The notes below the pieces were generated by a model that did no database searches, had not been told where the DNA came from, and saw only the letters and a list, made by a program, of their open reading frames with translations. The translations under genes were made by a program, and so were the position numbers. 64,000 nucleotides of DNA from Bacteroidales bacterium. GTDB lineage: Bacteria; Bacteroidota; Bacteroidia; Bacteroidales; JAFGHD01. Below, in pieces: positions 2,521 through 51,511 of the stretch; within the stretch, counting starts at the first letter, position 1; each line of letters starts with the position of its first letter. The stretch is from positions 4,208 through 68,207 of the forward strand of contig JAFGHD010000002.1 of assembly GCA_016939365.1 (NCBI GenBank), read 5' to 3'.

Positions 2521-2525
2521 CAAGT

Positions 2526-6242: not shown

Positions 6243-6288
6243 GGGGGGAGGAGGAAAAAATGGATACCCGGAGGACTCTATCCTGAGA

Positions 6289-28056: not shown

Positions 28057-28134
28057 GCGGGATACGATCATGTTAAAATTCTGGTTTTTATCTATTTTCG
28101 CATCTGCAAAACCACATCAAGCAGGCAATAAGAA

Positions 28135-29175: not shown

Positions 29176-29245
29176 TACCTCTTGGCTTCAGTGATATTTT
29201 CATTGGGTCATTAAAACCAAATATCTGTATCTTAGTGCCCTGTTT

Positions 29246-30667
29246 ATGAGTGAAAGGCAACGAACCATCCAGTCGCCGGTATCTGTCTCCGGGAAAGGCT
29301 TGCATTCAGGGCTGACTGTCAATATGACATTCTGGCCTGCCGATACGAACCATGGAATCCGCTTCAGACGTGCCGACCTTGACAACCAACCGGTAATCCG
29401 GGCTGACTGTAATCTGGTTTCAGATACCAACAGGGGAACCAGTCTTTTGGAAAATGGAGCATCGGTAAGCACAATCGAGCATGTGATGGCAGCGTTGAGA
29501 GGGCTTGAAATCGACAATGTGCTTATCGATGTTGACAATCAGGAAATACCCATTCTGGACGGAAGTTCGCGTTTTTTTACCGAAGCTCTGTTAAAGGCAG
29601 GGTTCCGTGAGCAAAATGCGGAACGGATCAGCATTGCAATTGACCGTGTCATCATTTACCAGGACAGTTCCCGCAAGACTGAGTTTATCGCTATTCCGGC
29701 GGATGAATTCAGGGTGACGGTGATGATCGACTATGAAACGGAAGTGCTGGGCACTCAAAATGCCGCCCTGGAGCACATCTCCGATTTCAAGAATGAGATT
29801 GCCAACTGCCGGACTTTCGTTTTTCTTCATGAACTGGAATACCTGCTGCAAAACGACCTGATCAAGGGCGGTGACCTCAGTAATGCCATTGTCTTTGTCA
29901 ACCGGCTAATCAGCCAGGAAGAACTTGACCGCCTGGCCCGTCTTTTCAAAAAGCCTTCAGTCAAGGTTTTGAACAAAGGCATTCTGAATAACCTGGAGCT
30001 TTATTTTGAGAATGAGCCCGCCCGGCACAAGCTTCTTGATGTTGTCGGGGATCTTTCCCTTGTGGGAACCCCATTCAAGGCCCACATCATTGCCAGAAGA
30101 CCAGGGCACGGAGCCAATGTTCACTTTGCGAAAATTCTCAAACAATATATTGTGGAAAAGAAGATGCGACGGTTTGTTCCTCCCTTTGACCTGAACAAGT
30201 CCCCCTTGTACGATATCAACGTGATCAAGCAACTTCTCCCGCACCGGCCACCCTTTCTCCTGGTGGATAAGATAATAGACAAGGATGAGACACATGTGAT
30301 CGGCGTCAAAAATGTGACCATGAACGAAAGTTACTTCATGGGCCATTTCCCCGATGAGCCGGTCATGCCCGGAGTATTGCAGATTGAAGCCATGGCTCAG
30401 ACCGGAGGTTTGTTTATGCTCGGTTCTGTCAAGGATCCCGGAAATTACGCCACCTATTTCCTGAAAATTGACAATGTCAGGTTTCGGAGTAAAGTGGTGC
30501 CCGGAGACACCCTGGTTTTTTCGCTTGAGCTGGTTTCACCGATCAGGCGGGGATTGTGCCATATGAAGGGTGTGGCCTACGTTGCTGATAAGCCCGTGAT
30601 GGAAGCGGAGATGCTGGCACAGATATCCAGAAAAAAGACAAAGCAATCCTCCAAACAGAAAGAATGA
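29246..30667 (+). CDS. lpxC/fabZ: bifunctional UDP-3-O-acyl-GlcNAc deacetylase / 3-hydroxyacyl-ACP dehydratase (LpxC-FabZ fusion)
   Basis: The N-terminal approximately 300 aa are LpxC-like (SGKGLHSG, TIEHVMAAL, RPGHGANV). The C-terminal hot-dog domain has FabZ blocks (LPHRPPFLLVDKI, GHFPDEPVMPGVLQIEAMAQ). Confidence 0.95.
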   Translation: MSERQRTIQSPVSVSGKGLHSGLTVNMTFWPADTNHGIRFRRADLDNQPVIRADCNLVSDTNRGTSLLENGASVSTIEHVMAALRGLEIDNVLIDVDNQEIPILDGSSRFFTEALLKAGFREQNAERISIAIDRVIIYQDSSRKTEFIAIPADEFRVTVMIDYETEVLGTQNAALEHISDFKNEIANCRTFVFLHELEYLLQNDLIKGGDLSNAIVFVNRLISQEELDRLARLFKKPSVKVLNKGILNNLELYFENEPARHKLLDVVGDLSLVGTPFKAHIIARRPGHGANVHFAKILKQYIVEKKMRRFVPPFDLNKSPLYDINVIKQLLPHRPPFLLVDKIIDKDETHVIGVKNVTMNESYFMGHFPDEPVMPGVLQIEAMAQTGGLFMLGSVKDPGNYATYFLKIDNVRFRSKVVPGDTLVFSLELVSPIRRGLCHMKGVAYVADKPVMEAEMLAQISRKKTKQSSKQKE

Positions 30668-31458
30668 ATCAACCGTTAGCATATGTGCACCCTCAGGCCA
30701 AGGTGGCAAAAAATGCTGTAATTGAGCCTTTCGTAAACATTGAAGGCAACGTTGAGATCGGAGAAGGAACATGGATTGGCTCCAATGTGACCATCATGGA
30801 AGGTGTCCGTATCGGCAGGAACTGCAAGATATTTCCGGGAGCTGTCATTGGTGCCATACCTCAGGACATGAAGTATTCCGGTGAGAATACACTGGTAAAA
30901 ATCGGTGACAATACGACCATCCGCGAATTTGTGACCATTAACAGGGGTACGAAGGCAAGCTGGGAAACGGTCATTGGTGATTATTGCCTGATGATGGCCT
31001 ATGTGCATGTAGCCCATGACTGTATCGTGGGCAATAATTGCATCCTGGCCAATGCAGTCAATCTGGCCGGACATATTGAAATCGATGATTGGGCCATCGT
31101 GGGAGGCCTGACCGCCGTTCATCAGTTCGTGAAGATCGGTGCACACGTAATCATTGGTGGCGGTTCCTTGGTCAGAAAGGATGTCCCACCATATACCAAG
31201 GCTGCCCGCGAACCGCTTTCATATTCGGGCGTGAATTCCATCGGGTTGAGAAGGCGTGGTTTTTCCAATGATAAAATCAATGAAATACAGGATATTTACA
31301 GAATTTTGTACCTGAAGGGGTACAACGTGACTCAGGCGGTACGGTACATTGAGACCAACATGCCTTCCAGCCCCGAAAGAGACGAAATCCTGTCATTTAT
31401 CTCAAGGTCTACGCGTGGTATCATGAAGGGGTACTCCCGCCTTCCCGTCAATAGCTGA
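30664..31458 (+). CDS. lpxA: acyl-ACP--UDP-N-acetylglucosamine O-acyltransferase LpxA
   Basis: ATGA overlap with the lpxC-fabZ stop. Hexapeptide beta-helix plus an LpxA C-terminal helical domain (SGVNSIGLRRRGFS...EIQDIYRILY). Confidence 0.95.
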   Translation: MNQPLAYVHPQAKVAKNAVIEPFVNIEGNVEIGEGTWIGSNVTIMEGVRIGRNCKIFPGAVIGAIPQDMKYSGENTLVKIGDNTTIREFVTINRGTKASWETVIGDYCLMMAYVHVAHDCIVGNNCILANAVNLAGHIEIDDWAIVGGLTAVHQFVKIGAHVIIGGGSLVRKDVPPYTKAAREPLSYSGVNSIGLRRRGFSNDKINEIQDIYRILYLKGYNVTQAVRYIETNMPSSPERDEILSFISRSTRGIMKGYSRLPVNS

Positions 31459-31533
31459 TTTTCTCTTCATTATTATTGTCATTAACACAACTTATCACGA
31501 TAGAATGGTTTAAAACTGGAGGTACAATATATT

Positions 31534-32100
31534 ATGGCAACAACTGCAGATTTCAGAAACGGATTGTGTATCTACTTTAATGATGATCTTTACTCCATCA
31601 TTGAGTTTCAGCATGTAAAGCCAGGCAAGGGCGGCGCATTTGTGAGAACCAAGCTCAAAAACCTGAAAACGGGCAGGGTCATCAGTCATACCTTTAATGC
31701 AGGAGTGAAGATTGATGTGGCCCGCGTGGAGCGAAGACCCTATCAGTTCCTGTTCAAGGACGAAACCGGATATCATTTCATGCATACCGGTAACTTTGAG
31801 CAGGTCTACATCCCCGAAGAACTGATCGAGGCATCTCAATTCCTGAAAGAATCACAGGAGGTCGAAATCGTATTTCACGCGGATACCGAAACGCCCCTGA
31901 GTTGTGAATTACCGGCATATGTGATACTGCAAATCACTTACACGGAGCCCGGAGAAAGAGGGAATACGGCTACCAATGCCATGAAGGATGCCAGGCTTGA
32001 GACTGGAGCAACGATCAAGGTTCCACTCTTCATTAATACCGGTGAAAAAATCCGTGTGGATACACGATCAGGTTCCTATTCCGAACGTGTCAAGGAATAA
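31534..32100 (+). CDS. efp: elongation factor P
   Basis: 188 aa. The N-terminus [44 protein letters not shown] is canonical EF-P. Confidence 0.97.
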
Positions 32101-32145
32101 GAATCCGGCTATTCCCGCTGTCAAACTGATACATTATCCTGCCTT

Positions 32146-33111
32146 ATGAAGATCGATCCACCCGTCAGTGTGAAGGAACTGGCAGAAAAACTAGGCATTT
32201 CATTTACCGGTAACCCGGAACATCCCGTGTCCGGATTGAATGAAATCCACATGGTGGAACCGGGAGATATTACGTTTGTGGATCATCCCAAATATTATAA
32301 CAGGGCCCTCTTTTCTAAAGCCACCACCATAATCATCAACAAGGAAGTGGATTGCCCTGAGGGAAAAGCCTTGCTTCTGTCCGAGGATCCATTCCGGGAT
32401 TTCATGAAGATGATCTCTCTTCTCCGCCCCTTTGTACCTGCTTCCCGGCTGATCAATGAAACGTCGCAGATAGGAGAACATTCGGTGATCCAGCCAGGGG
32501 CTTTTATCGGCAATAATGTGGTCATCGGAAAGCATTGCATTATTCACCCCGGTGCGGTAATCTACGATCATTGTATGATCGGTGATCATGTCATTATTCA
32601 TTCAAATAGTGTTATTGGTGCGGATGCATTCTATTTTCAAAGACGCTCCGATCATGTTGTGAAATTTCTGTCCTGCGGGCGAACGATCATCAATGACCAT
32701 GTTGAGATCGGTGCCTGTTCCACTGTGGACAGGGGCGTCACAGGAGATACCATCATTGGGGAATATACCAAATTTGACAATCACGTTCATATCGGCCATG
32801 ATACGGTTATCGGGAAAAGATGTTTTTTTGCGGCTTCGGTTATTGTTGGTGGAGTGACCCGCATTGGCAATGATGTCACAGTCTGGGGACAGGTGGCCAT
32901 CAATAAGGGACTGATTATTGGTGATGGGGTTGTCTTGCTGGGTACTTCGGCCGTCGACAAGGATCTGGAAGGCCATAAGACCTATTTCGGAGCTCCGGCA
33001 GAGGAAGCCAAAAAAAAATGGAAGGAGATGGCCGCTATCCGCTCAATGGCAGAAGATTACATGAGGATACAAAAAAAGACAAACATATCTGATCTTACAG
33101 GAGATGCCTGA
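32146..33111 (+). CDS. second LpxD-like UDP-3-O-acylglucosamine N-acyltransferase paralog
   Basis: LpxD-type N-terminal domain ([37 protein letters not shown]) followed by hexapeptide repeats. It is 25 aa shorter than the upstream lpxD. Confidence 0.8.
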
Positions 33112-34171
33112 ACGGTAACAGCATCCTCTCAAATATCTTCTGGATCGCCGGTCTTCTTTTCCATTTTTCGTAATTGAAATTCTCGCAGTTTTTTATGGTT
33201 TCCCGGATGTGCCCGTCGATCTGTTTCACTGCCATCGGATCTCTTCCCACAATGGCGATTTCATGCATGTACCTGAAGCTCCGGTAATCAAAGTTGGGAG
33301 AACCAACGGAGAATACTTCCCGGTCGATGAGCAGAAGCTTGGCGTGCAGGTTATGGGGCAGGTAAAACAACAACCTGATCCCCTGTTTATGTAACATCCC
33401 GAGATACCGGTTCCGAAGAATGTCCACCAGGCCCACATCTGAGTGCTTTGGCATGATGACCGTCACCGCAACATCCCTTTTTGCAGCATCGGTCAAAGCT
33501 TTCCTGACGAGGTATCCCGGAAGAAAATAGGGTGTTTCGATGATGACCTCCCTGCCGGCAGTCCGGATCAACTCAATATATCTTCTCCTGATCCTCTGCC
33601 TTGTCAGGGAAGGCACATCCTGAAGAATCTCGCAGTCGCCGTGCCTGATCTTCCTGATCGGAGTCATCTTCTCGAAGACATACTTGTTAAAAGAGTTGAA
33701 GTCATTAATAAAGATTCGTTTCAACAACTGTGTCAGATCCGAGCGGACCCTGAGAAATGATTCGCGCCAGTTGAGAGAGTAGTCTGTAATATTTCCGGAA
33801 CCGATATAAGAGATCCTGTCGTCAATCAAAAGCAATTTCCGGTGATTGCGGCGGTGATTCTTTGTGAAAAAATCCCAGAATAATTTGATTTTTTTAAAAA
33901 ACCTTACCTCTCCCCCATGCCTGATCAATTCATGAAAGAAGGAGGAAGGTAAGGATGTCCCCCATGAATCCAACAATAGTTTGATCTCAACACCTTCCTT
34001 GGCTTTACGGGTGATCAGATCCCTGAATTTGATCCCGATGGAGTCGTTGTTAAAACGGTATGTCTGAAGGTAAATATAGTCTCTGGCATGCTCAATGTCA
34101 TCCAACATCGCATGGTAATACCTTATGGGATCGTCAAAAAGCCGGTACTCTTTATCGCTGGAGTTTGTCAT
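33095..34171 (-). CDS. phospholipase D-family protein (cardiolipin-synthase ClsB-like, no TM segment)
   Basis: Two HKD motifs: [19 protein letters not shown] and [19 protein letters not shown]. The 3' end overlaps the convergent lpxD paralog by 17 nt. Confidence 0.85.
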
Positions 34172-34223
34172 CCTCGTCTTCCGTATTCTGTCGGCTCTTT
34201 ATATGCGAAAATAACAAAAAGGC

Positions 34224-37085
34224 TTAAACCACGGGGTGGGAAACCTGCCGGAAGCAAATTCCTGAATAGGGACAATACCGGCATGCATCCGCATCCCCGG
34301 TTTGAATAAATGGCCGCGAATCATCAATCAGTTCATCAACGATGTTTCCCAGCAATTCCCTGAATTTATCCGTTGACTCACTGATTGTGCCTTCAGGCAC
34401 CTGTAGTGCCAGTATTCCCGATTCAGGCTGACGCATGGATATGATGCCCGCTCTGATTTGGGAAGGTTCTCCTTCTGTATTTCGCTCCAAGAGCCAGCTG
34501 TATAAAAGAAGCTGGAAGACCTTGCTTTTGTTTTCCTCCCTGATTTCTCCCCATGATTTCAGGACAAGGTCTCTTTTCTGGACATTACCGGTCTTGTAAT
34601 CAATGATTCTATATTCATCCCTTCTTCTGTCCACCCGGTCCAGTATGCCTGTGAAATTGGCCTGCAGGGATTTTCCCTTGAAGATGTTTGTTTCAGTGAA
34701 GGAAATGAGTTTTTTCTCAAGGTAAAATACTTCCCAGGGATCCGTGTCCTGAGTATGGCGGAATGCTTCCAGGTATCTGATGATCATTGATTCAGTGACA
34801 CGCATCATCAGCTTATTCCTTCCGGATGACATATCGCCCCCCGGATAAACGATTTTGAATGAATTTTTCAGGAGTTCGGGGATTTTCTCTGCCATGTTGC
34901 GGTATGCATCTTGTGGTATGGCTTTACCAATCCAGGGATTGTAAAGATGTTTCAGCACATCATGGATTACTGTGCCAAGTACATGGTCTTCAACTGACTC
35001 AGCCACGTCCTGAGGTTCCATGATACGGGCAACATACCTGAAATAGAACCTGAGACTGCACTGTAAATATGTGGTCATTGCTGTGGAGGACAATCCTGAT
35101 TGCAACAGGTTCAGCAGTTGGTTCATTATGTCAGGCACCTTATTGATCGTGACGGTCTGATGCCTGTCCGGTTGTGGCTCGAAGGACACGATCTCTTCAG
35201 TTATCTGCACACCGGGGGCCTTGTGAGGCATTTCATGGAGCAACTGGGTGATAAAACGGCTCATCTCCCCGCCTCCAAGCCCGCCGGGTTCGGTATTGTA
35301 AAGCAGCCAGATGTTTTCTGCTCTTTGCATCAAACGGTAAAAGTGATATGCATAGATTGCATGATGTTCTGAAGGAAGGGAAAGGCCAAACTCCCTGCGG
35401 ATATCAACCGGTATGAAGGTGGGAGGAATGCCGTGTGCCGGCAGGAAATCTTCATTGACAGATAACATGATGATGTTCCTGAAATCGATTGATCTGGTCT
35501 CCAGCATTCCCATTACCTGAAGACCCTTGAGAGGTTCGCCGTGCAAGGGTATCCTGAATTGCCTTGAAATGAGCCGGATAACGGCTCTCATATCCTCCAA
35601 GGTGGTGATGCAGGAATAGGTTTCTGCAAGGTTCCTGATCCTGATCATCATCCGTTGAGTGAAATCACACTGTTCAAACTCCTGAATCCGGCTGTTATCT
35701 TTAGCGTTTATTTCACCGTATTTCCCTTTGATGACTTCCAGCCACCGGCACATTACCTGTAGCGCTTTCAAGGGCATGATGTTCCAGTCACAGAAAAGTT
35801 CTTCCGCATCAAGCCCGGCGGAATGCAGAGGCAAACCGCACAATTGGATCAACTCCTGCCCGGGGAAATAGGCCTTCCCTGTTTTTCTAAGAATCGCCGG
35901 AAGTGCTTTCAAGCCATTCCCGTTGTTTTCCGAAAAAATTAAAAGGCTGGAATGTGAAAACAAACGGATCAGGTCCTTGAAATAAAAGCAATTTAGTCTA
36001 TTGTTTACATATGTTTCCGGCTTTCCGGGATGGTCATGAAGATCAAGCAAGGATTCAATCAGTGAATAAAAGACAGAATGTGATAAAGGTATCCCCATTG
36101 TAACATTGAAGTGGCCACACTGGTCTGCAATGGCGTTCAGCAAAGGAAGCAGCATTTGGTTGTCATTCAGGACAAGGGCCGTGTCATCCGTTTTTTCTCC
36201 ACATGAAATGATATCGCGGATCAGTTTCCCGGCCACCTGGGCCTGCCCGTTAAATCCAGGCACTCCGAGGATATTGATCTTTTTGGAGCTGGCGGTGAAA
36301 TGATCTTCCATCCAGAGGAAGCCCGAACCATGCCTGCGCATGAACTTTCTCAAGAAGCGGCCTGCTTCATGATCCTCATCCTCTGCATAATAACGATCTG
36401 CATCCCAGAATATCCGGGCTTGTCTCCTTTCCGTCAGTATCTCCATTACCTTTTCCTCAGCCGGGGAAAGTGCATTGAATCCTGCAAAAACAACTGATTT
36501 CCACCTGTCCAGAACCAGACCATCCTTCAGTTTTTCCACCGCCAGCCGGGAGGCCATTCCCTGGTATCCCAAACCTTTCCTGATCAGGACATCATGAAGC
36601 TCATTGTAATATCTTATCAGTGACCTGTAGAACTCCAGGTAATTTCTTTCATGCGCCGTCAGCGGGGTTTTGTCTGGATTCCATAAGGCTATGGCCTTGG
36701 CATCACTCAGGTAAGAGAAAATTTTTCCCGGATCCGCCAGACAAAGGTCAATGTCGTTAAAATCTGAAATGATCATCTGCCCCCATTCCGCAAATTCCCT
36801 GAGAGATGCATGCCCTTTGTCACCGGTAAGCTTTCTGTGGATCTCAAAAAGATCAAAAAGCAGGATCAGATCATCTGCAATCCGGACGCCGGAAATGTCG
36901 GAAACAAATTCTTCAATGGTCAATACATGCGGTGACCAGACAGGCGTTCCGATCAGGGATGAAATTTCCTTCCGGAGGTACAATCCCGCCCTTTTGTTGG
37001 GCAGTACCACACAGACATCCCTCAAATCATCGCCAATATGCCCGAGAATATGCTGAGCCAGATGTCCAAGAAACGATAATGTCAT
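34224..37085 (-). CDS. PD-(D/E)XK nuclease family protein, AddB-like with Fe-S cysteine staple
   Basis: 953 aa. The C-terminal nuclease block is ILDRVDRR...IIDYKTG. There are four Cys in AddB-like spacing: one upstream (TYLQCSLRFYF) and CRYCPYSGIC (C-x2-C-x5-C) at the end. I could not find a Walker A motif in the N-terminal part. Confidence 0.8.
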   Translation of the reverse strand: MTLSFLGHLAQHILGHIGDDLRDVCVVLPNKRAGLYLRKEISSLIGTPVWSPHVLTIEEFVSDISGVRIADDLILLFDLFEIHRKLTGDKGHASLREFAEWGQMIISDFNDIDLCLADPGKIFSYLSDAKAIALWNPDKTPLTAHERNYLEFYRSLIRYYNELHDVLIRKGLGYQGMASRLAVEKLKDGLVLDRWKSVVFAGFNALSPAEEKVMEILTERRQARIFWDADRYYAEDEDHEAGRFLRKFMRRHGSGFLWMEDHFTASSKKINILGVPGFNGQAQVAGKLIRDIISCGEKTDDTALVLNDNQMLLPLLNAIADQCGHFNVTMGIPLSHSVFYSLIESLLDLHDHPGKPETYVNNRLNCFYFKDLIRLFSHSSLLIFSENNGNGLKALPAILRKTGKAYFPGQELIQLCGLPLHSAGLDAEELFCDWNIMPLKALQVMCRWLEVIKGKYGEINAKDNSRIQEFEQCDFTQRMMIRIRNLAETYSCITTLEDMRAVIRLISRQFRIPLHGEPLKGLQVMGMLETRSIDFRNIIMLSVNEDFLPAHGIPPTFIPVDIRREFGLSLPSEHHAIYAYHFYRLMQRAENIWLLYNTEPGGLGGGEMSRFITQLLHEMPHKAPGVQITEEIVSFEPQPDRHQTVTINKVPDIMNQLLNLLQSGLSSTAMTTYLQCSLRFYFRYVARIMEPQDVAESVEDHVLGTVIHDVLKHLYNPWIGKAIPQDAYRNMAEKIPELLKNSFKIVYPGGDMSSGRNKLMMRVTESMIIRYLEAFRHTQDTDPWEVFYLEKKLISFTETNIFKGKSLQANFTGILDRVDRRRDEYRIIDYKTGNVQKRDLVLKSWGEIREENKSKVFQLLLYSWLLERNTEGEPSQIRAGIISMRQPESGILALQVPEGTISESTDKFRELLGNIVDELIDDSRPFIQTGDADACRYCPYSGICFRQVSHPVV

Positions 37086-37112
37086 AATCGTCCGGTCATG
37101 AATCAGGATGAA

Positions 37113-37811
37113 TTATCCCAAATTTTCGATTTTTCCCAAATCCAGCCATTCGGAATGATCGTGACTGTAATATCCGATCCTGTTTTCTTCAGAAAGCCGG
37201 AGGTACAACTCTACAAGGGAGAAAACCTCCCTTGCTTTGACCAGCGGGAACAATTCTGGACTGATGACCTGTATCCCGCTGAAGGCAAGATGCTCCAAAT
37301 GACCCCGATACGGTCTCGTGATGATCTTCTCACCGGTTGCTACATGCTCCCATCCGGAAAGCCAGCCCTCCTCGTCGAACAGTAAATATCTGTTCGATAT
37401 TCTTTTCTTAACTGCAAGGGTTGCCAGATTCGTTCCGCTGCAATGAAAATGATACATTTCCCTGAGTGACAGGTCGGTGCTGATATCTACATTGTGTACG
37501 AGGAAAGGTTTCTGATCATCGAAGAACCAGGAAGCGTTGATCAGCCCACCCCCAGTGTCCAGGAGCCTTTCGGTTTCGTCTGAGAACTCAATACGGACAC
37601 CGAAATGATCCTTTTGTGCGATAAATTCCCTGATCTGATCGGCAAAATGGTGTATGTTGATGATGATCTCATTGAAACCTTCATTGATGAGGCGATGGAT
37701 CACCCGTTCGATCATCGGTATTCCATGATAGGGAATCAGGGCTTTGGGGAGTGCATCCGTAAAGGGCCGGAGTCTGGTACCCAAGCCTGCTGACAGGATC
37801 ATGGCTTTCAT
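37113..37811 (-). CDS. sugar-1-phosphate nucleotidyltransferase, MurU-like (N-acetylmuramate alpha-1-phosphate uridylyltransferase-like)
   Basis: From the ATG at 37811, MKAMILSAGLGTRLRPFTDALPKALIP... is the canonical nucleotidyltransferase N-terminus, and the size of about 232 aa matches MurU-type enzymes. The track ORF extends to a TTG at 37982, adding a basic Cys-rich 57 aa (see findings). Confidence 0.8.
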   Translation of the reverse strand: MKAMILSAGLGTRLRPFTDALPKALIPYHGIPMIERVIHRLINEGFNEIIINIHHFADQIREFIAQKDHFGVRIEFSDETERLLDTGGGLINASWFFDDQKPFLVHNVDISTDLSLREMYHFHCSGTNLATLAVKKRISNRYLLFDEEGWLSGWEHVATGEKIITRPYRGHLEHLAFSGIQVISPELFPLVKAREVFSLVELYLRLSEENRIGYYSHDHSEWLDLGKIENLG

Positions 37812-37991
37812 GAAGCCCGTTTTTTTTTCAGGTTTGCAAAGATTCTTCTTCCTGTCGGCGGATGCATGGCATTTTCTACAGATGAAAACCGCACTCTTTA
37901 CGTCTGATTTCAGCCTTTGTTTCTTACATGCCCGTTTTTGACATCGGATCAATGCCCGGTAAGTTAATTGAAATGTTTTCAACCTTTTCTG

Positions 37992-38669
37992 TCATAGCGG
38001 CCTGTCCTCTTCGTCATGATAGATGTTGACGTTCAGCACAAACCGGATTTCACCCAGTCTTTGAAGTAGCTCCTTAGTATCTTTTCCCCTGCGTATGACG
38101 ACCCGGTAAAAGGCTTCGATCTGATTAGAGTTCTGTGTCTTCATATTGGTCAGGTGTATTTTTCGGCAATATTTGTTCAAAAGTTCATCCAATACCCGTT
38201 CTGATTGCTGATCCGGTTCATAGGACAATTGCAGGAGATGTTCATCCCATTGGGGATCGCCGAAGTGAAAAGATACGAGTATAACACTGATGAAACAGAT
38301 TACCAGGGTACCGGTAATGGCAATGACAAACAGGCCCACTCCTGCGGCCAGGCCGACAGCCAATGCCAGGAAGATAAAAACGATGTCCTGCACATCCCTG
38401 ATGGCAGTACGGAATCGGATGATAGACATGGCCCCTACCAGACCAAAGGCTCTGGCCAGGTTGTTTCCGATCACCATGATCACCACTGCAGTGATCATGG
38501 TTAACAGGATCAATGAATTTACATAGGAAGAGGAATAGCTGGTCCCCTTGTAAATAGCCCGGTAAACGATCGCGATCACCAGCCCGCAAACCAATGCTAC
38601 TCCGAGGTTAAAGAGTACCTGGGGCCAGGAGATGGTAATGGGGTCTAATGTCTGAATCTGTTCAAGCAT
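37992..38669 (-). CDS. DUF4956 domain-containing membrane protein
   Basis: Four hydrophobic helices including the GAMSIIRFRTAIRD block I associate with DUF4956, followed by a soluble C-terminal domain of about 90 aa. The start lies 4 nt after the VTC gene stop. Confidence 0.75.
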   Translation of the reverse strand: MLEQIQTLDPITISWPQVLFNLGVALVCGLVIAIVYRAIYKGTSYSSSYVNSLILLTMITAVVIMVIGNNLARAFGLVGAMSIIRFRTAIRDVQDIVFIFLALAVGLAAGVGLFVIAITGTLVICFISVILVSFHFGDPQWDEHLLQLSYEPDQQSERVLDELLNKYCRKIHLTNMKTQNSNQIEAFYRVVIRRGKDTKELLQRLGEIRFVLNVNIYHDEEDRPL

Positions 38670-38673
38670 AGGA

Positions 38674-39441
38674 TTATTTTTCTGCGAACCAGGTGGAATG
38701 CATCAGGATAGTGCTCCGGCCGGCGTTCTTGGCTATACGTTGAGAATCAATGCAGATCACATATTTTGAAGCCGCCTGGGCCCTGAGGTCAAATCGTGAC
38801 AACAGTGGCCTCAGCCATGACGGATACTGGTGATCGAATTTTACTTCCAGGATGAAATGACCGTTGATGGCTCTCTTAATACCCGTATTGTCGAACAATT
38901 GATCCACACCGGGAAAGGATTTTGATCTGAGATTCCTGTCAAATGTGATACGGACCGACCTGTCAAATTTGCTGAAGAATGCCTCCCGCTCATACATCAC
39001 CAGTATGACCGGGCGTAAATTTTGACCGAACAGTTCAAAGAAAAAAGAAGAAGCATTTTTGCGTGCCAGGGGAACATCGTCCTGCATGAAGACGAAACCA
39101 TTGATCGACGCCTTTCTGAACAACTCCAAGGCTTCCCCGTAAGTTAGTGGGATCCTGTTTTTAAGAATGGGGATATTGTACTTCCTCTTGATCTCAAGGT
39201 ACACACGGGTATCATCAGACCCCTTGTTATATCCTCGTATCCTGAACTTTTTCCTGTTTTTGATACCTTCCACCTTTTCATAATAATAATCCAGGCGAGG
39301 CGTATCAAAATATATGGACCGGACCGTATAGCCGTTTTCTTCATTTCGGTTATTGGAATCAGAATTGACAAAAGGAATGACCATGTGCCGGATGTCATCC
39401 AGCAATTCCTCCCTTACTATGTACTTATACTCGAACCTCAC
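38674..39441 (-). CDS. VTC domain-containing protein (triphosphate-tunnel / polyphosphate-polymerase-like)
   Basis: The GTG start directly abuts the TAA stop of the upstream gene. The N-terminal MRFEYKY fits the R-x-E-x-K tunnel signature. Also VRSIYFDTP and KFRIRGY strands. The family often pairs with DUF4956. Confidence 0.75.
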   Translation of the reverse strand: MRFEYKYIVREELLDDIRHMVIPFVNSDSNNRNEENGYTVRSIYFDTPRLDYYYEKVEGIKNRKKFRIRGYNKGSDDTRVYLEIKRKYNIPILKNRIPLTYGEALELFRKASINGFVFMQDDVPLARKNASSFFFELFGQNLRPVILVMYEREAFFSKFDRSVRITFDRNLRSKSFPGVDQLFDNTGIKRAINGHFILEVKFDHQYPSWLRPLLSRFDLRAQAASKYVICIDSQRIAKNAGRSTILMHSTWFAEK

Positions 39442-40497
39442 TTAACCGGCGGTGATATTTCTCTTGAAATACTCAAAAATACTGATCTTTTGGCAGATGA
39501 TCGTACAGGTGACATGCATGCCTGAATGCCAACCCTCCGGATGATTGGGAAGCATTGCCCTTACTATCAGGGGATTGGATCCATCAACAAGGGTAATGCT
39601 CTCTTCTTCCCCGATCCAGACTGCCGGCACTGCCTGTCCATTACCCTGTATCTCGACCTCTATACCCGTCACCTCTTTCAGGAATGGAATATACTTCGGA
39701 TGAATCATGCACTTGACGATCAACCCTGATGTATCAGAAACGCTGAATATGTCAGGTGTGACATGACTGAACTGAAGTGCTCCGGTCAGCGGGGAAACCA
39801 GGAAGTATTCATCCTTCAGGGACTTCATCTTCCTGATCTCCCTTTCATATCCGGCGATTCGTTCATTGACAAGATTGATTACGGCAGGCTTGCTACCTGT
39901 CACCAAGGCATCAAGGGCTGTACGGGCAACCTGGTGGTTGATTTCGGCCAGTCTGTATGTGTTTTCCGCAAGATCAAACTCAGCCTGTGATATAATACTG
40001 TCCTCGAAAAGAATTTTTTGCCGGCTGTAGTTTTTTCTTTCCAGTTCCAGCTGTTCCAACGCGATCTGTACCTGTTGTTCAGCCTGCCTTTTAATCTCCT
40101 CTTTTTCTCCGGTTGATTCCATATCCCGGTTCGCGATCTCGACCATTTTCAGATTCTCCAGACGGAGGATCTCATTTTCAAGAAAATGAGATTTAATGAT
40201 TCCAACAGTATCGCCCTTGTTTACGATCCCGGGTTGCTTGCAGGCTTGGGCCATAAAAACGGAAGCAATGTCCCCCCTTTCAAACCGGTAATTTTTTAGG
40301 CCATATACGGAATGTCCCACATAGTTATGGATTTCACTTGTAAAACTGTCATCCTGCCCTCTCACCAGCTTCCATTCACTGGTTGGCATCAAAATTCCTG
40401 TGGCAGTAATACGGTAAGGAATCCGGAAGGGCAGAAAAAAAGGTAGTAATGCCGCAACCAGGATCACCCATAAAAAGTGTCGTCTCTTCAATGGCAT
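39442..40497 (-). CDS. HlyD-type periplasmic adaptor / membrane-fusion-like protein
   Basis: N-terminal TM anchor (FLWVILVAALLPFFLPF), barrel-sandwich-like segments (GDTVGIIKS ... YFLVSPLTGAL) and a central coiled coil (EEIKRQAEQQVQIALEQLELERKNYSRQKILFEDSIISQAEFDLAENTYRLAE). No transporter gene is adjacent. Confidence 0.65.
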   Translation of the reverse strand: MPLKRRHFLWVILVAALLPFFLPFRIPYRITATGILMPTSEWKLVRGQDDSFTSEIHNYVGHSVYGLKNYRFERGDIASVFMAQACKQPGIVNKGDTVGIIKSHFLENEILRLENLKMVEIANRDMESTGEKEEIKRQAEQQVQIALEQLELERKNYSRQKILFEDSIISQAEFDLAENTYRLAEINHQVARTALDALVTGSKPAVINLVNERIAGYEREIRKMKSLKDEYFLVSPLTGALQFSHVTPDIFSVSDTSGLIVKCMIHPKYIPFLKEVTGIEVEIQGNGQAVPAVWIGEEESITLVDGSNPLIVRAMLPNHPEGWHSGMHVTCTIICQKISIFEYFKRNITAG

Positions 40498-40563
40498 GAT
40501 CAGATTTACGTAATTGACACGATTATGTTAACAGGCAGGAGAAATATTTTCCGGCCTCAGTTG

Positions 40564-41997
40564 TTATTCAGTATTCAATTCCCTGTGCTTCAGTACTACT
40601 CTCACAGCGGGAAATCGATTCTGCATCCTGCGATAAAACTCCTCCGCGCAGAAGACGGAACGGTGCTGTCCTCCGGTGCATCCAAAGCTGACCATCAGAT
40701 GAGTGAATCCTCTTTCCAGGTAATTGTGCACAGCCGATCCCACAAGGGCTTCAACATTTCTGATGTACTCCAGCACTTCTGCATGATTCCCCAGGAATTT
40801 CCTGACCGGTTCATCCAGACCGGTCAACGCTCTGAATTCCGGCAGTCTTCCCGGATTGGGCAAAGCCCTGCAATCAAAAACAAATCCGCCGCCATTCCCT
40901 GAGGGATCAGAAGGAATCCCTGTTTTATATGAAAAGCTCTTGACTGATAAGGTCAAAACATCCTGTACATCAATGGCGGGTTCATTTTCTGACTGATCTA
41001 TTGCCTTTTCCAGACACCGCCATATTTCCGGAAGATTTACGGGCAGCCTGATATGTTCAATGATCCAGGCCGAGTTGGTCAGGGCCATTTTCATACTGGC
41101 CAGGAAATGCGGTTTTTTTTCATGTATTCCCCTGAAACCATATGCACCGAGCACCTGAAGGTTTCTCAGTAAAATGAAAAGCGGGTAGTTTTGATGGAAT
41201 TTCTTTCTGCTTGGCAGGAGGTGATTCCCGGGAAAAACATCAAGATAGTATTCCAGCAAACGCTGCCTGTCATCCGGCAGCAATGAGGCCCTTGCCTGAA
41301 ACAAAAGTGAAACCAGATCATACTGCAGTGGGCCCCTTTTTCCGCCCTGGTAATCGATAAACCGCAGATTTCCGTTCTGTACCATAATGTTCCGTGCCTG
41401 AAAATCACGGTACATGAACCACCTGGCTTCAACCGATTTCAATAATCCCGTGAGCCTTTTAAAATCATCCTCAAGTGCCTGTTCATCGAAAGGGATGCCT
41501 TTGAGTTTCAGAAAATGATATTTGAAGTAGTTCAGGTCCCAGGTCACTGATTGGGTGTCGAAGGCTTCCCTTGGGTGGCATTTTGAAAAATCAAGACCTT
41601 CAGCCCCCTTTGTCTGGAATTCAACGAGCCAGGCCACTGCTTCCTGATACAGTCGTTCACTTACAAGCGACAGCGCTCCCGATTCTTCCTTTTCAATTAC
41701 AGAGAACATGGATTCATCGCCCAGATCCTCAAGGAGGCATATTCCGCTCTCAGGGTTGGCAACAAAGAGTTTTGGAACGGGCAAACCTTTGTCAGTAAAA
41801 TGCCTTGTAAGGTAAATAAATGCTTCATTCTCGCGACGGTCAGTATTGATGGCAGCGATCACGGTTTGCTTTCCACCGGTTATCCGGAAATAATCCCGGT
41901 GACTGCCTGAAGGCGGTAACGGGCGGATATCATCCGCTTCTTTACCTTGCCATTCCCTGAACGACCGGCCGATCTCTTCTATCCCAGAAAGCGCCAT
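40564..41997 (-). CDS. APH-fold sugar kinase (AmgK-like) fused to a RapZ C-terminal-like domain
   Basis: Residues 1 to about 330 have protein-kinase-like phosphotransferase motifs (SGSHRDYFRI; YRDFQARNIMV; FIDYQGG..GPLQYDLVSLL). Residues from about 335 to 477 match the C-terminal domain of RapZ/YvcJ block for block (SFSYKTGIP..GGGFVFDCRALPNP, LTGLDEPVRKFL, SFGCTGGQHRSV, KHRELN). Confidence 0.85.
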   Translation of the reverse strand: MALSGIEEIGRSFREWQGKEADDIRPLPPSGSHRDYFRITGGKQTVIAAINTDRRENEAFIYLTRHFTDKGLPVPKLFVANPESGICLLEDLGDESMFSVIEKEESGALSLVSERLYQEAVAWLVEFQTKGAEGLDFSKCHPREAFDTQSVTWDLNYFKYHFLKLKGIPFDEQALEDDFKRLTGLLKSVEARWFMYRDFQARNIMVQNGNLRFIDYQGGKRGPLQYDLVSLLFQARASLLPDDRQRLLEYYLDVFPGNHLLPSRKKFHQNYPLFILLRNLQVLGAYGFRGIHEKKPHFLASMKMALTNSAWIIEHIRLPVNLPEIWRCLEKAIDQSENEPAIDVQDVLTLSVKSFSYKTGIPSDPSGNGGGFVFDCRALPNPGRLPEFRALTGLDEPVRKFLGNHAEVLEYIRNVEALVGSAVHNYLERGFTHLMVSFGCTGGQHRSVFCAEEFYRRMQNRFPAVRVVLKHRELNTE

Positions 41998-42272
41998 ATC
42001 ACTTTAATCCATATCAAACCAATCAGAAATGAATGAAGATTCCCGGGATTGCACTGAGATGCCTGCCGGGTTGATCATGTCATCCATCATTGTGGATATC
42101 CATTAGACCCTTTAAATGCAAAGGGGTTTACCCCCCCCCATCCGGATCAAACCTTTTTAATTCAGGTACTGCCCCTTCAGCTTCTTCCGGTGTTTATCCC
42201 CCTTGTTTCACATTTGAAAAGACATTTTCTGCCCTGTTTTCGTTGCATTTTCCCACTCAGCCATATTTTCTC

Positions 42273-42280
42273 TATTTTTG
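42273..42280 (+). promoter_or_regulatory. candidate -7 promoter element (TATTTTTG)
   Basis: TAnnTTTG match 36 nt upstream of the ATG at 42316. Confidence 0.35.
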
Positions 42281-42315
42281 CAGTCAACTGAAATTCAGGA
42301 ATCAAATCGTTTGTT

Positions 42316-42822
42316 ATGGCAACCAAATCACCAAATGACATTTTAAAGGAAGCGATTTTACTTGAAAGACGCGGCAAGGCCTTTTACTCGAACATTGCGC
42401 GGCAGACAGAGAGTGAAGCTGTGCGTAAGGTGTTCAACATGATGGCAGAAGAGGAGGATGAGCATATCGAATTTCTATCGAGGCAATTCAAGGCGTTCAA
42501 TGAGAAGCACGAATTCCTCAGACCTGAGGCTCCGCAGGAACATCCTGACGAGGAGGTGGTCATGAACATCCTGACCAAGGAGATCAGGGAGCAGATATCC
42601 GCGGCCAGTTTCGAAGCAGCAGCCATATCTGCGGCCATCGACTTCGAGACCCGGGCGGTAAATATATACTCCGAGAGGGCTGAGCAGGCATCAGATCCTA
42701 TGGAAAAAGAGACCTACCGGATGCTGGCCGAATGGGAAAGCGGTCACCACAAGCTTCTGTATCGCCTGAATGAAGACCTGAAGGAACAGATATGGAATGA
42801 CAACAGCTTCTGGCCGTTCTGA
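42316..42822 (+). CDS. ferritin-like (rubrerythrin-family four-helix-bundle) protein
   Basis: 168 aa with paired E-x-x-H type blocks (EEEDEHIEFL and AEWESGHHKLL) in a helical repeat. Confidence 0.75.
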   Translation: MATKSPNDILKEAILLERRGKAFYSNIARQTESEAVRKVFNMMAEEEDEHIEFLSRQFKAFNEKHEFLRPEAPQEHPDEEVVMNILTKEIREQISAASFEAAAISAAIDFETRAVNIYSERAEQASDPMEKETYRMLAEWESGHHKLLYRLNEDLKEQIWNDNSFWPF

Positions 42823-47700: not shown

Positions 47701-47815
47701 AAAGGAAGAGATCGAAAGACAGGAGGAATCTGAGCGAATGATGAAGGCTGTTCCGGATACCATGCCTGATCAGCCTGATCAGATCGAGATCGATGAAGGG
47801 AAAATACCCGAGTAG
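44711..47815 (+). CDS. very large tetratricopeptide-repeat protein (secreted)
   Basis: The ATG at 44711 gives a signal peptide (MKRLFIFIQPLFFLWLLIPLRSGGQ). More than 1000 aa of recurring TPR/YbgF-like repeats follow (for example DALFYLGKQEY, EARYGKMICSY, EAKYNLARIEY). Confidence 0.85.
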   Translation: MKRLFIFIQPLFFLWLLIPLRSGGQQSAYFEDPPARFRSALDLMEKEQFGQAREHFRWLQEHELPMGSRMLADAILYEGICAYELYHPDASRLLNGFIEKYPSDTRISDALFYLGKQEYRNRKWHSASRFFEKVDPEVLPDDSQDEYSFKWGYCYFQTEKFEEALRCLTRVKDGQGKYAAPACYYSGHIYYIQKSYDKALDEFMRLETDENFGSIVPYYILQIRFMQGDYNAVIRTGPALLEVATPKRTPEIARFTGLAYIRTAQYEKGLPYLLQFHESEGVQPERPDLFELGYALYRTGDHERASEYFEKAANGRDTIAQYAYYYLGDCYLQTGKRQFAGNAFMSSFKLGYDQDIREDALFLQAQLAYELSFDPYSEAIKSLKQYLNEYPDSPRNDEAYQFLYDIAISTGNYTEALLALERMKEKGQDHAKKLQKALYFKGVDLFHQQQFKEAADTFIQSAEAGPERDIAAAAYFWAGEAFFRNNEDDLAENYFRGFLRSPGAFHSDLINPAYYSLGYVLFRKKQYDEALIQFSKFTGNNQGRTKEMLADAYVRSGDCYFIRKDFQESIRWYDRAVDLESGEVDYALYQKALALGVLQKNDEKVRILQEMMVKYPRSTLLPDALYESGNTWLLLNDPEKGLMSFRKIITDYPASSHNVKAHLKSGLIYYNMDQNDLALSFFEKVVSGYPGTPESKEALVSIRNIYMAENRVDEFFRYVQNLAFADITQAEQDSITYMAAENQFMKGNCTSARISLEKYLERFPEGAYIAHASFYAAECYSGENNRDKALELYLQVIGLPRSRFTETALLKTARILLEQGRYEQSLNYFGELEQIAESRNNLTEARYGKMICSYRLEQYDQAIQNADILLTVDKISDEWKIDALLIRASSMMSLDRLDDAEAAFREVTKISRAEAGAEAKYNLARIEYVRGELPQAEKTVFELINQFAAHDYWVASGFILLADIYVQAGNLFQAKQTLQSIIDNYEGKDLITAARLKKEEIERQEESERMMKAVPDTMPDQPDQIEIDEGKIPE

Positions 47816-47861
47816 CATGATTGACGAGATGCCATCAACTGAAGAAAAGCGAAATCAAGAT

Positions 47862-49550
47862 ATGAAGATGAAATCCTTCTTGCTGCCGGTTGTCACAGGG
47901 ATTTTGTCCCTGGTCATTTCATCCGGGGTGTTCCCACAGCAAATTGTACCGGAAGAGATTGTTGTCGAGGCACCTTATCATCCGTCCCTGTCGGAAGCAA
48001 ACAAGATCGGACTGAGTCCCCTGCTGCCTTTACAGGCATTGGAAAAACCTGCATTCAATTATAAACTGCTTCAGAAATCCCCCGTTAACCAGGTGGTGCC
48101 GGAGCCTATCGTTCCCGCTCAGATCAAGGGGGAGTCACTGACCAGGCTCCGGAACAACTATTTCAGGCTGGGAATGGGTACCTACACCACACCTTACCTT
48201 GAGTTCTTTGCCAATACCACCCGGTCGAAGAAACATTCCGTGGGGGTACGCATCAGGCATCTCTCTTCATCAGGCAAAATCCGCGATTATGCTTACAGCG
48301 GTTTCAGTGATAATGAAGTAAAATTGGATGCAAAAAAACTCAGTCGTGATCATACCCTTTCAGCCGGCCTGGACTACCGGCACGACATGATCCACCGCTA
48401 CGGATTCAAACCCGCCGACTTCCCCGGCATCACCCTGAGCAAAGAGGACACAAGGCAAATCTACCAGCGGCTGGGTGTGAACGCAGGATTGATGAGCAAT
48501 TATACCGGGGACGACCGGATGAATCACGAGGTCAGCCTTGGATACCGGTATTTTGCAGACCGATACGAAACCAGTGAGCACATGCTTTCCGTTTCCGGAG
48601 GAGTGAACAGGCAAACCGGTTTTTTCGATTTTTCAAGCCGAGAGTGGATGGGCGCCGACCTGGAATTTACTTACTTCATTCACCAGGACACGCTGGTTTC
48701 CCAAAACACCGGATTGCTTGGTATCAAGCCCTATTACCGTTTGAAATTCAATTCCTACTCCTTCCGGGCAGGCATCAATCCTGTGGTGGAGATTGATTCA
48801 GTGACGCAAATGCACTTCTACCCTGAAGTTCACGCTGAAGTGGAAGTGATACCTGCCGCACTGATCACCTATGCAGGTATCAGCGGTAAAATGGAACGAA
48901 ACGGCATCAGTGCCCTTACTGAAATGAATCCTTTCATCCGTGTGGGAGCACCTCTCATGTTTACCAATCACAAGTTTGAGCAGTACGGTGGGATTAAGGG
49001 ACGGATCGGCCGTATCATTGATTTTGACCTGAATTTTACCAACAGCTCATTGGAGCAGCTCCCCTTTTTCATCCAGGATACCCTTTCCGCTCCCCTGCCC
49101 GGCCTGTTCAACCAGTATACTGTCGTATATGACCGAGTCAGGCGGTCAACGGTGAACGCCAACATCCACGGTAAATGGAAGGACCGTCTGAGTGCACGCA
49201 TACATGGTGCCTATCACAGCTTCTTCATGGATAATGAGGAGAAGCCCTGGCATCAGCCTGCGTTTGAGATGCTTTTTTCAGTATCGTATTCGATCGGAGG
49301 GAAAATCTTATTGCGTTCTGAACTAAAGACTTTCAGCAAGATGTATGCCCCTGATTTCAGTGGCACTTCTGAAGGGATAGCAGAACTATCAGGTGCTGCT
49401 GATCTGCACCTGGGATTGGAATACCGTTATTCACGCGTATTGTCCGCATTTCTGAATTTCAGCAACCTGCTCAACCAGTCCTACGAAAGATGGTACCAGT
49501 ATCCATCGCAACGCTTCAGCCTGATGGGGGGTATCACCTACTCTTTCTGA
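47862..49550 (+). CDS. putative outer-membrane beta-barrel protein
   Basis: The ATG at 47862/47868 gives a signal peptide (MKMKSFLLPVVTGILSLVISSGVFPQ). Amphipathic beta-strand patterns alternate throughout, and the C-terminus ...SLMGGITYSF ends in Phe as in OM barrels. Confidence 0.65.
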   Translation: MKMKSFLLPVVTGILSLVISSGVFPQQIVPEEIVVEAPYHPSLSEANKIGLSPLLPLQALEKPAFNYKLLQKSPVNQVVPEPIVPAQIKGESLTRLRNNYFRLGMGTYTTPYLEFFANTTRSKKHSVGVRIRHLSSSGKIRDYAYSGFSDNEVKLDAKKLSRDHTLSAGLDYRHDMIHRYGFKPADFPGITLSKEDTRQIYQRLGVNAGLMSNYTGDDRMNHEVSLGYRYFADRYETSEHMLSVSGGVNRQTGFFDFSSREWMGADLEFTYFIHQDTLVSQNTGLLGIKPYYRLKFNSYSFRAGINPVVEIDSVTQMHFYPEVHAEVEVIPAALITYAGISGKMERNGISALTEMNPFIRVGAPLMFTNHKFEQYGGIKGRIGRIIDFDLNFTNSSLEQLPFFIQDTLSAPLPGLFNQYTVVYDRVRRSTVNANIHGKWKDRLSARIHGAYHSFFMDNEEKPWHQPAFEMLFSVSYSIGGKILLRSELKTFSKMYAPDFSGTSEGIAELSGAADLHLGLEYRYSRVLSAFLNFSNLLNQSYERWYQYPSQRFSLMGGITYSF

Positions 49551-51417: not shown

Positions 51418-51511
51418 AGGCCTCCCATTGGTCGGCAAAATTAACAAATATGATATTGGTACGGATTTCGCTTGTACTTTTACCATAAACAACAGAACAA
51501 TCCCAAACGGT

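Follow-up and report, generated by a model that had tools for sequence, protein, structure and literature searches.

The window analysed here, a 64,000-nucleotide (nt) stretch of a Bacteroidales contig (JAFGHD010000002.1), carries five minus-strand genes between positions 37113 and 41997. This five-gene array is a common Bacteroidota operon for an AmgK-like kinase, a MurU-like nucleotidyltransferase and an AddB-like protein, interrupted by an inserted trio of genes that encode a periplasmic adaptor, a VTC protein and a DUF4956 membrane protein. Judged by its gene order, spacing and occurrence apart from that operon, the trio is an autonomous, co-translated module, and we read it tentatively, at a little short of an even chance, as an inner-membrane-anchored Vtc4-type polyphosphate synthase coupled to a periplasm-spanning adaptor for envelope-directed export. 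The analysis itself shows the gene order, a trio that is conserved and autonomous, the fold of the adaptor with its RLS motif, the conserved Vtc4 catalytic residues and the MgtC-like character of the DUF4956 protein, and from these we infer complex formation, polyphosphate as the product, and export.

Organization and conservation of the trio

The five open reading frames (ORFs) are present in the ORF listing of the window at the coordinates of the original prediction, and its gaps of 66, 0, 4 and 180 nt are likewise borne out by that listing and by reading of the junctions. The trio consists, in order of transcription, of the adaptor gene (39442–40497, minus strand, 351 amino acids (aa)), the VTC gene (38674–39441, minus strand, 255 aa, GTG start) and the DUF4956 gene (37992–38669, minus strand, 225 aa). 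The TAA of the adaptor gene abuts the GTG of the VTC gene with 0 nt between the codons, and 4 nt (TCCT) separate the TAA of the VTC gene from the ATG of the DUF4956 gene. At the edges of the trio, 66 nt lie between the TAA of the AmgK-like gene and the adaptor ATG, and 180 nt between the TGA of the DUF4956 gene and the ATG of the MurU-like gene, or 9 nt if a TTG start is used for the latter. No Rfam RNA element was found in 33000–42600.

All sampled adaptor-bearing loci belong to Bacteroidota. The order adaptor, VTC, DUF4956 was observed in 15 distinct loci, the window counted, with adaptor–VTC gaps of -1 to 18 nt and VTC–DUF4956 gaps of -23 to 50 nt, and the earlier proposal that the three middle genes are a translationally packed unit is upheld by these short gaps or overlaps. 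Ten further loci, gathered from VTC homologs and from an adaptor-profile scan of metagenomes, form a close clade (L003, L005, L006, L008, L011, L012, L013, L014, L016 and L017), where the trio is followed usually by a 40-aa ORF, then by a MurU-like gene and, on every contig that reaches so far, by an AddB-like gene, while the genes flanking the trio block differ from locus to locus. The close clade comprises low-GC Bacteroidales of very similar tetranucleotide composition, from which the window differs in composition whilst sharing the junction on the DUF4956/MurU-like side. Divergent trio loci have adaptors of 31% (L024), 27% (L026), 27% (L027) and 30% (L028) identity, adaptor identity thus falling to 27% while the VTC and DUF4956 proteins remain at 43–58%. 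No MurU-like, AmgK-like or AddB-like/PDDEXK gene flanks the trio in L027 (9 kb on each side) or in L028. An AmgK-like gene upstream of the trio is absent from every other trio locus, in the sequence at hand of up to 10 kb, and adjoins the trio in the window only.

Outside the window, the trio also has putative promoter elements of its own. A Bacteroidota -7 box (TAnnTTTG) is located 29–44 nt before the adaptor ATG in trio loci lacking an upstream AmgK-like gene, and none was found in the window's 66-nt gap between the AmgK-like and adaptor genes, which fits read-through from the kinase promoter. The trio is regarded as autonomous because L027 and L028 carry it with no salvage genes, because five of five other AmgK-like loci have the MurU-like gene next door and lack it, and because it has its own -7 box where no AmgK-like gene precedes it. 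That the three genes are functionally unrelated and merely co-inherited is highly improbable. Shared ancestry does add to the conservation, given that all sampled loci are from Bacteroidota, but the flanks differ at nearly every locus while the trio order and its 0–20 nt junctions or overlaps persist, and VTC and DUF4956 genes are adjacent in Firmicutes as well.

A further box, GCAAC-N18-ATCT, was found with strict spacing, once per locus, in 9 of the 12 loci headed by the trio, 84–120 nt upstream of the adaptor ATG and 5' of the housekeeping -7 box (L003:6819-6845, L006:6856-6882, L011:9912-9938, L012:9900-9926, L013:38-64, L014:831-857, L016:426-452 and L017:151-177). Its layout resembles that of extracytoplasmic function (ECF) sigma factor promoters. 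The window has only a one-mismatch copy at 42220–42246 (minus strand), 223 nt upstream of the AmgK-like ATG, and this near-match carries no weight because it is roughly what chance would give. No regulatory motif common to the AmgK-like and trio promoters was found. The long 5' intergenic region from the rubrerythrin gene to the AmgK-like gene also contains, at 42122–42139 (minus strand), a G9 run with a terminator-like hairpin (GGGGGGGGGTAAACCCCT then TTGCATTT).

The VTC protein

The VTC protein matches PF09359 with 139 bits and is a soluble protein made up of a triphosphate tunnel metalloenzyme (TTM) domain only. Neither an SPX nor a transmembrane (TM) domain was found in its 255 aa, unlike Vtc4, which assembles with Vtc1. 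It aligns with the catalytic domain of Vtc4 (3g3q) at E = 1.6e-8, with R67 and R69 corresponding to R264 and R266, K85 to K281 and E199 to E426, and the triple mutant R264A/R266A/E426N has been used as a catalytically impaired Vtc4 (PMC9911596). Among 120 homologs these four residues are invariant, as are R41, E83, K87, R152, R164 and K201, whilst K226 is kept in 119 of the 120, and R2, E4 and K6 in all 106 sequences that cover the N-terminus. With all Vtc4 catalytic residues kept, the protein is predicted to be a Vtc4-type polyphosphate polymerase. VTC-type polymerases have been treated as eukaryotic, with PPK1 and PPK2 as the bacterial enzymes (PMC12526157).

The resemblance to the eukaryotic VTC complex lies in the homologous catalytic domain, which keeps the Arg, Lys and Glu residues critical to polymerase activity, and in the arrangement of the genes, as the trio likewise couples a cytoplasmic enzyme genetically to a small multi-TM protein, suggesting that synthesis may be coupled to translocation. 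The trio differs, however, in having no SPX sensor and no fused DUF202-type TM domain, its membrane partner being an unrelated MgtC-like DUF4956 protein, and its periplasmic adaptor is without a eukaryotic counterpart.

The DUF4956 protein and the VTC–DUF4956 pair in other bacteria

The DUF4956 protein scores 66.7 bits against PF16316, above the gathering threshold of 30.6, and 17.5 bits against MgtC (PF02308), below the threshold of 31.4, with a weak match to NF007431 in addition. Five TM helices are predicted in it, with an ACT-like domain at the cytoplasmic C-terminal end, and its motif G76-x-VGA-x-SI-x-RFRTA-xx-D-xx-D95 is invariant from Bacteroidota to Firmicutes. The AlphaFold2 model has a mean predicted local distance difference test score (pLDDT) of 63, with about 80 in the C-terminal domain, and was built from a shallow alignment whose members are all about 55% identical. 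In Foldseek, the C-terminal domain of the model resembled ACT domains (IlvN) and 2lqj, the C-terminal domain of MgtC, and the homologs carry the JGI label YhiD. By these matches and the model, the protein is an MgtC-like membrane protein. Like members of the MgtC/SapB/YhiD family, it has at its N-terminus a hydrophobic domain with some five TM helices, followed by the cytoplasmic ACT-like domain, but it differs from that family in the sub-threshold score, in the distinct SIxRFRTAxxD signature and in having a VTC gene as an obligatory neighbour.

Two Firmicute plasmids carry the VTC–DUF4956 pair with CotH kinases, in L029 (Pseudobutyrivibrio plasmid pNP95, 4221-7360) and L030 (Planococcus plasmid, 4067-7842). 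One of these pairs has GT2, GT4, acyltransferase and pyruvyltransferase genes around it; the other overlaps a preceding gene whose product has a sub-threshold match to a xylose-isomerase-like TIM-barrel family. VTC–DUF4956 genes with CotH kinases in surface-glycan clusters have also been described in a report on the Pel locus. This CotH-VTC-DUF4956 set of Firmicutes and Actinobacteria, found in Pel-like and other glycan loci and in NELoc-1 of C. perfringens, has the same adjacent, co-directional pair in an envelope or surface-polymer context, but a CotH kinase, along with DUF4832 or others, takes the place of the adaptor as third partner, and its hosts are monoderms. In B. thetaiotaomicron, the DUF4956 gene BT3498 was reported together with the adjacent DUF2490 gene BT3499. 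The CotH and glycan contexts and the BT3498–BT3499 pair fit an envelope-directed role for VTC–DUF4956.

Across these gene neighbourhoods the VTC–DUF4956 pair is the universal core. The pair is already known, solely as an unstudied accessory gene set, and no description of the adaptor-containing trio was found in the searched literature. Bacterial VTC–DUF4956 pairs number in the thousands and are unstudied. The Bacteroidota trio, with its TolC-docking adaptor, would point to envelope-directed polyphosphate as a concrete function.

The adaptor

The adaptor has no Pfam match, and only weak NCBIfam matches to RND_mfp, CzcB and HlyD were obtained. Its AlphaFold2 model, built from an 80-sequence alignment, has a pLDDT of 94.6 and a predicted template modelling score (pTM) of 0.77, and comprises a TM helix (residues 5–21), a hairpin of two helices of about 60 residues each (104–165 and 171–229) and a beta-rich body. 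The best Foldseek matches are MacA structures (3fpp, 9qgy, 5nik and 4dk0, E = 3e-14 to 4e-12), followed by MexA, EmrA and AcrA, with E-values to 1e-9 overall and about 330 aligned columns. At the tip of the modelled hairpin, whose turn is formed by residues 166–170, the sequence R159-x3-L163-x6-S170 agrees with the TolC-binding RLS motif, RxxxLxxxxxxS (PMC3391258). Among 80 family members the Arg is kept in 75, the Leu in 72 and the Ser in 49, with Ala in 18 and Thr in 4 at the last position (Ser, Ala or Thr in 71). The protein is an inner-membrane-anchored, MacA-like periplasmic adaptor (membrane fusion protein) that retains the RLS motif for TolC docking. The family is compact, with an exhaustive phmmer search returning 670 cluster representatives at E <= 1e-3 of 1.84 billion, nearly all of them about 350 aa long and matching over the full length at 24–40% identity.

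The domain identities in the original prediction were recovered with hidden Markov models (HMMs) for APH and RapZ C-terminal, VTC, DUF4956 and NTP_transferase. Its description of the adaptor as HlyD-type stands as regards the fold, by AlphaFold and Foldseek, but not as a significant Pfam HlyD-family match, which the window protein does not have. The absence of a cognate pump was also confirmed, as Pfam scans of 27 large ORFs revealed no ABC, RND or MFS transporter and no TolC-type gene in the window, and no pump was found in any of the 15 trio loci. The adaptor resembles those of MacAB-TolC, EmrAB-TolC and HlyBD-TolC in its N-terminal TM anchor, long alpha-hairpin, RLS tip and beta-rich body. 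Those systems have an ABC, RND or MFS transporter and an outer-membrane factor, whereas neither is encoded in the trio cluster or elsewhere in the 64-kb window; instead, the neighbours that the adaptor keeps are a TTM enzyme and a DUF4956 protein.

The likeness to MacA allows another arrangement, in which the TTM enzyme would serve as a motor, its hydrolysis of ATP, triphosphate or polyphosphate moving the DUF4956 protein, and the adaptor would relay this movement to expel a periplasmic or membrane substrate via TolC, as in a MacB-like mechanotransmission pump with a non-ABC engine. MacA is indeed the adaptor's best structural match and its partner MacB acts by mechanotransmission, the TTM superfamily contains many hydrolases (PMC4641920), and no canonical transporter is linked to the trio. 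The conserved residues are, however, those of the Vtc4 polymerase subfamily, the DUF4956 protein lacks a counterpart of the periplasmic domain of MacB, and the arrangement is without precedent, making it improbable.

Proposed function of the trio

In the polyphosphate export reading, the soluble VTC enzyme would dock on the cytoplasmic face of a DUF4956 oligomer, which would supply the five TM helices, the invariant Arg cluster of RFRTAxxD and the ACT-like domain. The enzyme would polymerise phosphate from ATP into polyphosphate, and the chain would be fed through or along the DUF4956 protein, in the way that eukaryotic VTC couples synthesis to membrane translocation. The TM-anchored adaptor would form its usual funnel above the DUF4956 protein, and the RLS tip of its hairpin would dock a TolC-family channel encoded elsewhere, so that the polymer could pass to the periplasm or the cell surface.

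Several observations weigh against this reading. No TolC-family gene is linked to the trio in the window or in any locus, and L023 has a distant adaptor homolog (25% identity) that is not followed by a VTC gene. Confidence in the TM part of the DUF4956 model is low (pLDDT about 55), no likeness of the model to the Vtc1/3/4 channel was found with Foldseek, and periplasmic loops are nearly absent from the protein, which leaves an adaptor little to hold. MgtC-family proteins are, so far as known, regulators rather than channels, and TTM enzymes also include hydrolases and cyclases, so that membership of the superfamily does not guarantee polymerase activity. The searched literature contained no experiments on any bacterial VTC or DUF4956 protein, only incidental mentions.

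Some of the same features would suit a membrane-tethered intracellular device for polyphosphate or phosphate homeostasis, in which the DUF4956 protein would be an anchor or regulator of the VTC enzyme and the adaptor would stabilise or sense, with no export taking place. The DUF4956 protein is MgtC/YhiD-like, with a C-terminal ACT-like domain of a kind typical of ligand-sensing regulators and no channel-like fold match, no outer-membrane partner is linked, and the VTC protein lies in the cytoplasm. Without an envelope conduit, however, it would be hard to account for a MacA-like adaptor whose TolC-docking RLS tip is conserved. The adaptor is also strictly co-linear with the pair down to 27% identity, and the third partner in monoderms is a CotH-family protein within surface-polymer loci. 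On balance, a purely intracellular role is rather unlikely.

It is possible, if doubtful, that the trio supplies the inner-membrane and periplasmic portions of an envelope-spanning conduit of a new class, in which a Vtc4-like polymerase replaces the transporter ATPase and polyphosphate leaves via the DUF4956 protein, the MacA-like adaptor and TolC. If this were true, both a bacterial VTC-type polyphosphate synthase and a dedicated system for polyphosphate secretion would be on record for the first time, and the core pair of monoderms could give extracellular CotH kinases a phosphoryl donor. The trio would also widen the range of inner-membrane partners served by the adaptors of tripartite pumps, and it offers a genetic handle on the role of bacterial VTC proteins and on the passage of polyphosphate to the periplasm or surface.

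The host operon and its relation to the trio

The AmgK-like gene (40564–41997, minus strand, 477 aa) encodes a Pfam APH domain of the anomeric-sugar-kinase type (PF01636, 47.8 bits, residues 24–252) fused to a RapZ C-terminal domain of the sugar-phosphate-binding type (PapZ_C, 117 bits), and the catalytic loop is intact, with the YRDFQARN and IDYQG motifs legible in the translation. Its kinase domain has the AmgK models as its best named NCBIfam matches, but scores of 64.7 and 59.9 bits fall below the equivalog cut-offs of 550 (NF045759) and 500 (NF045698), and these models, of 324–360 positions, leave the extra RapZ C-terminal domain uncovered. Among solved structures it matches 5o5s, a RapZ C-terminal domain, and 3csv, an APH protein. 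Its two-domain architecture is that of a very large Bacteroidota family, with >8000 homologs of the identical two domains at E < 1e-10.

The MurU-like gene (37113–37811, minus strand, 232 aa from its ATG, with the ORF reaching an in-frame TTG at 37982) encodes a putative sugar-1-phosphate nucleotidylyltransferase with an NTP_transferase domain (Pfam, 78 bits). NF045761 (MurU) is its top match and covers the full length (1–231 to 1–220 of 226), although the score of 133.9 bits is under the cut-off of 250. The closest solved structures are MurU of P. putida (4y7t, E = 2.9e-22) and then 8hhd (8.4e-21). The earlier naming of AmgK and MurU as the nearest characterised families thus holds by both NCBIfam and solved-structure matches, and on sequence grounds "AmgK-like/MurU-like" is a fair description of the two proteins, whose substrate is only inferred because both are far below the equivalog cut-offs.

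Five other Bacteroidota contexts of the AmgK-like gene were examined (L001, L019 from a Pontibacter genome, L020, L021 and L022), and in five of five the first enzyme gene after it is the MurU-like one, with the trio absent from all of them. L022 and L003 come from the same sample but represent different organisms, because their GC contents are 55% and 39%, respectively. In the window, 2.7 kb separate the AmgK-like gene from the MurU-like gene, with the trio in between. The AddB-like gene follows 27 nt after the MurU-like gene (34224–37085, minus strand, PDDEXK_1 125.6 bits, outside the trio), and a MurU-like gene is followed by an AddB-like one in L001, L003, L005, L006, L008, L011, L013, L014, L017, L020 and L022 also, with the full succession AmgK-like, MurU-like and AddB-like (PDDEXK_1) in L001, L020 and L022. 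The divergent rubrerythrin gene of the window is common to L020 and L022. The AddB-like protein of about 950 aa thus trails the AmgK-like/MurU-like pair in divergent Bacteroidales, trio or no trio, and the pairing is conserved; the loci for which genes had been called showed no AddA-type helicase gene.

The host operon is accordingly a string of AmgK-like gene, small Cys/Lys ORF, MurU-like gene and AddB-like gene that is widespread in Bacteroidota, and by analogy with the nearest characterised families it would most likely convert a free amino sugar to a nucleotide sugar. According to published work, Bacteroides species have the AmgK/MupP/MurU route (PMC8054146), which is also at work in Tannerella forsythia (PMC7670621). 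The likeness to the anabolic MurNAc/GlcNAc salvage pair AmgK-MurU, of Pseudomonas putida and reported for Bacteroides and Tannerella, consists in the APH-fold kinase and small NTP_transferase, in genes that are likewise normally adjacent in Bacteroidota, and in MurU as the best solved-structure match. The window proteins differ in scoring far below the equivalog cut-offs, in the extra RapZ C-terminal domain of the kinase, in having the small Cys/Lys ORF and the AddB-like nuclease as conserved partners, and in the splitting of the pair by the trio.

The original prediction regarded the AmgK-like and MurU-like genes as a bracket around the trio, and the whole as wired to cell-wall sugar salvage. 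The bracket is not supported, since the AmgK-like gene is beside the trio in the window only and the pair is adjacent without the trio in all five contexts. The wiring amounts at most to an operon fusion of the trio with the MurU-like gene that is specific to a clade (10 further loci), and not to a five-gene machine, because the bracket is unique to the window and the trio stands alone in L027 and L028. As to whether the trio travels with the kinase and transferase genes, it does so with the MurU-like gene in those 10 loci and with the AmgK-like gene in none of them. The MurU-like fusion, confined to one Bacteroidales clade and the window, is read as a secondary operon capture, and the link of the trio to MurNAc salvage is probably lineage-specific and secondary.

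There is only a small chance that the five genes form one machine, in which sugar activation of the AmgK/MurU type is functionally coupled to the trio, the trio for example exporting or phosphorylating an envelope polymer derived from a nucleotide sugar, or the pyrophosphate of the MurU-like enzyme priming the VTC polymerase. Such coupling would agree with the position of the trio directly 5' of the small ORF and MurU-like gene in 10 loci with divergent flanks, and of the AddB-like gene where the contig extends, and with the sharing of this junction between the window and the low-GC clade despite their different composition. A -7 box lies between the DUF4956 gene and the small ORF or MurU-like gene in only 3 of 10 loci, and co-transcription is therefore plausible in the close clade, the other 7 having no canonical box there. 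Firmicute VTC–DUF4956 pairs also occur in glycan gene clusters, and pyrophosphate has been reported as a Vtc4 primer (PMC12526157). Nowhere outside the window, however, is the AmgK-like gene beside the trio; L027 and L028 have the trio with no salvage-type gene at all, and the AmgK-like and MurU-like genes are adjacent without it in five of five contexts, the Pontibacter genome included. Moreover, the small ORF goes with the MurU-like gene and not with the trio, trio-side MurU-like sequences form no clade apart from the AmgK-side ones, and both salvage-like proteins are under the equivalog cut-offs.

A separate MurU-like paralog beside the trio was considered and rejected, the neighbour-joining trees being star-like with trio-side and AmgK-side sequences interleaved.

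The small Cys/Lys open reading frame

The AmgK-like/MurU-like/AddB-like operon contains a previously unnoticed, conserved micro-ORF. It encodes 40–43 aa, is Lys-rich with four Cys residues in the pattern MxKTxCKK...P[KR]FxCxKC...CKPEK, and is located immediately 5' of MurU-like genes in Bacteroidales; no Pfam family matches it. Intact copies are present in L001, L003, L005, L006, L008, L011, L013, L014, L016 and L020 (for example L003:9499-9621, L001:9384-9515 and L020:9038-9166). The small ORF belongs with the MurU-like gene because it is present in trio loci and in trio-less loci (L001 and L020) alike.

In the window, the frames and the homologous copies identify a remnant or fused copy at 37812–37944 (minus strand), in which the ATG (37944) is shifted by one base relative to the frame of the body, while the stop codon is missing and the body reads through into the MurU-like gene. 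This read-through explains the apparent TTG start of the MurU-like ORF. The lesions lie in homopolymer runs (A5/G3 at 37940–37932 and A9 at 37828–37820), and deleting one base in each run would restore the ORF MSKTACKK...CKPEKKRAS, with its stop overlapping the murU ATG. The window copy is either a real fusion or pseudogene, or the product of a pair of sequencing errors, the latter being possible because both lesions are in homopolymer runs.

The spacer of 600 nt between the AmgK-like gene and the small ORF in L020 (L020:8425-9038) is purine-rich simple sequence with 2–3 copies of a repeat of about 95 nt (AAAGCCCTGAAAGGGCGAAACATCATAACCGTGGGCGAGCG...), which resembles a miniature mobile or REP-like element. 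After the small ORF of the same locus there is a 132-aa ORF (L020:9169-9567) with no Pfam family.

Other features of the window

As originally predicted, the array continues co-directionally into the AddB-like gene and a PLD/cardiolipin-synthase-like gene on the same strand, the latter (33095–34171, minus strand, PLDc_2 143 bits) being the last gene of the co-directional string. Its product scores 196.6 bits against the cardiolipin synthase model TIGR04265, below the cut-off of 290, and is without the N-terminal membrane region of that model, the match beginning at model position 118. Copies after the AddB-like gene were found in L011 and L014 only (L011:16460-17536 and L014:7351-8427), and these are 67–68% identical to the window protein while their neighbours are 36–58% identical. 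A defence-island reading was rejected, as PADLOC had no match for any of the five genes, giving only domain-level matches, Cas4-like on the AddB-like protein and DrmC-like on the PLD protein.

A group of HD-domain, lpxD, lpxC/fabZ and lpxA genes flanks the block both in the window (26689–33111, plus strand) and in L005 (L005:1757-6464). In L005 these genes lead the block and share its direction, whereas in the window they are at its tail and converge on it, separated from it by efp and a second lpxD-like gene, and the differing position and orientation therefore imply an inversion of the whole block. Elsewhere in the window, two ORFs of 685 aa (24700–26757, minus strand) and 585 aa (47793–49550, plus strand) match no Pfam family at E <= 1e-5, two tandem DUF6599 proteins are encoded at 802–3431 (plus strand), and a full-length bacterial serpin (338 bits) is encoded at 51428–52723 (plus strand).

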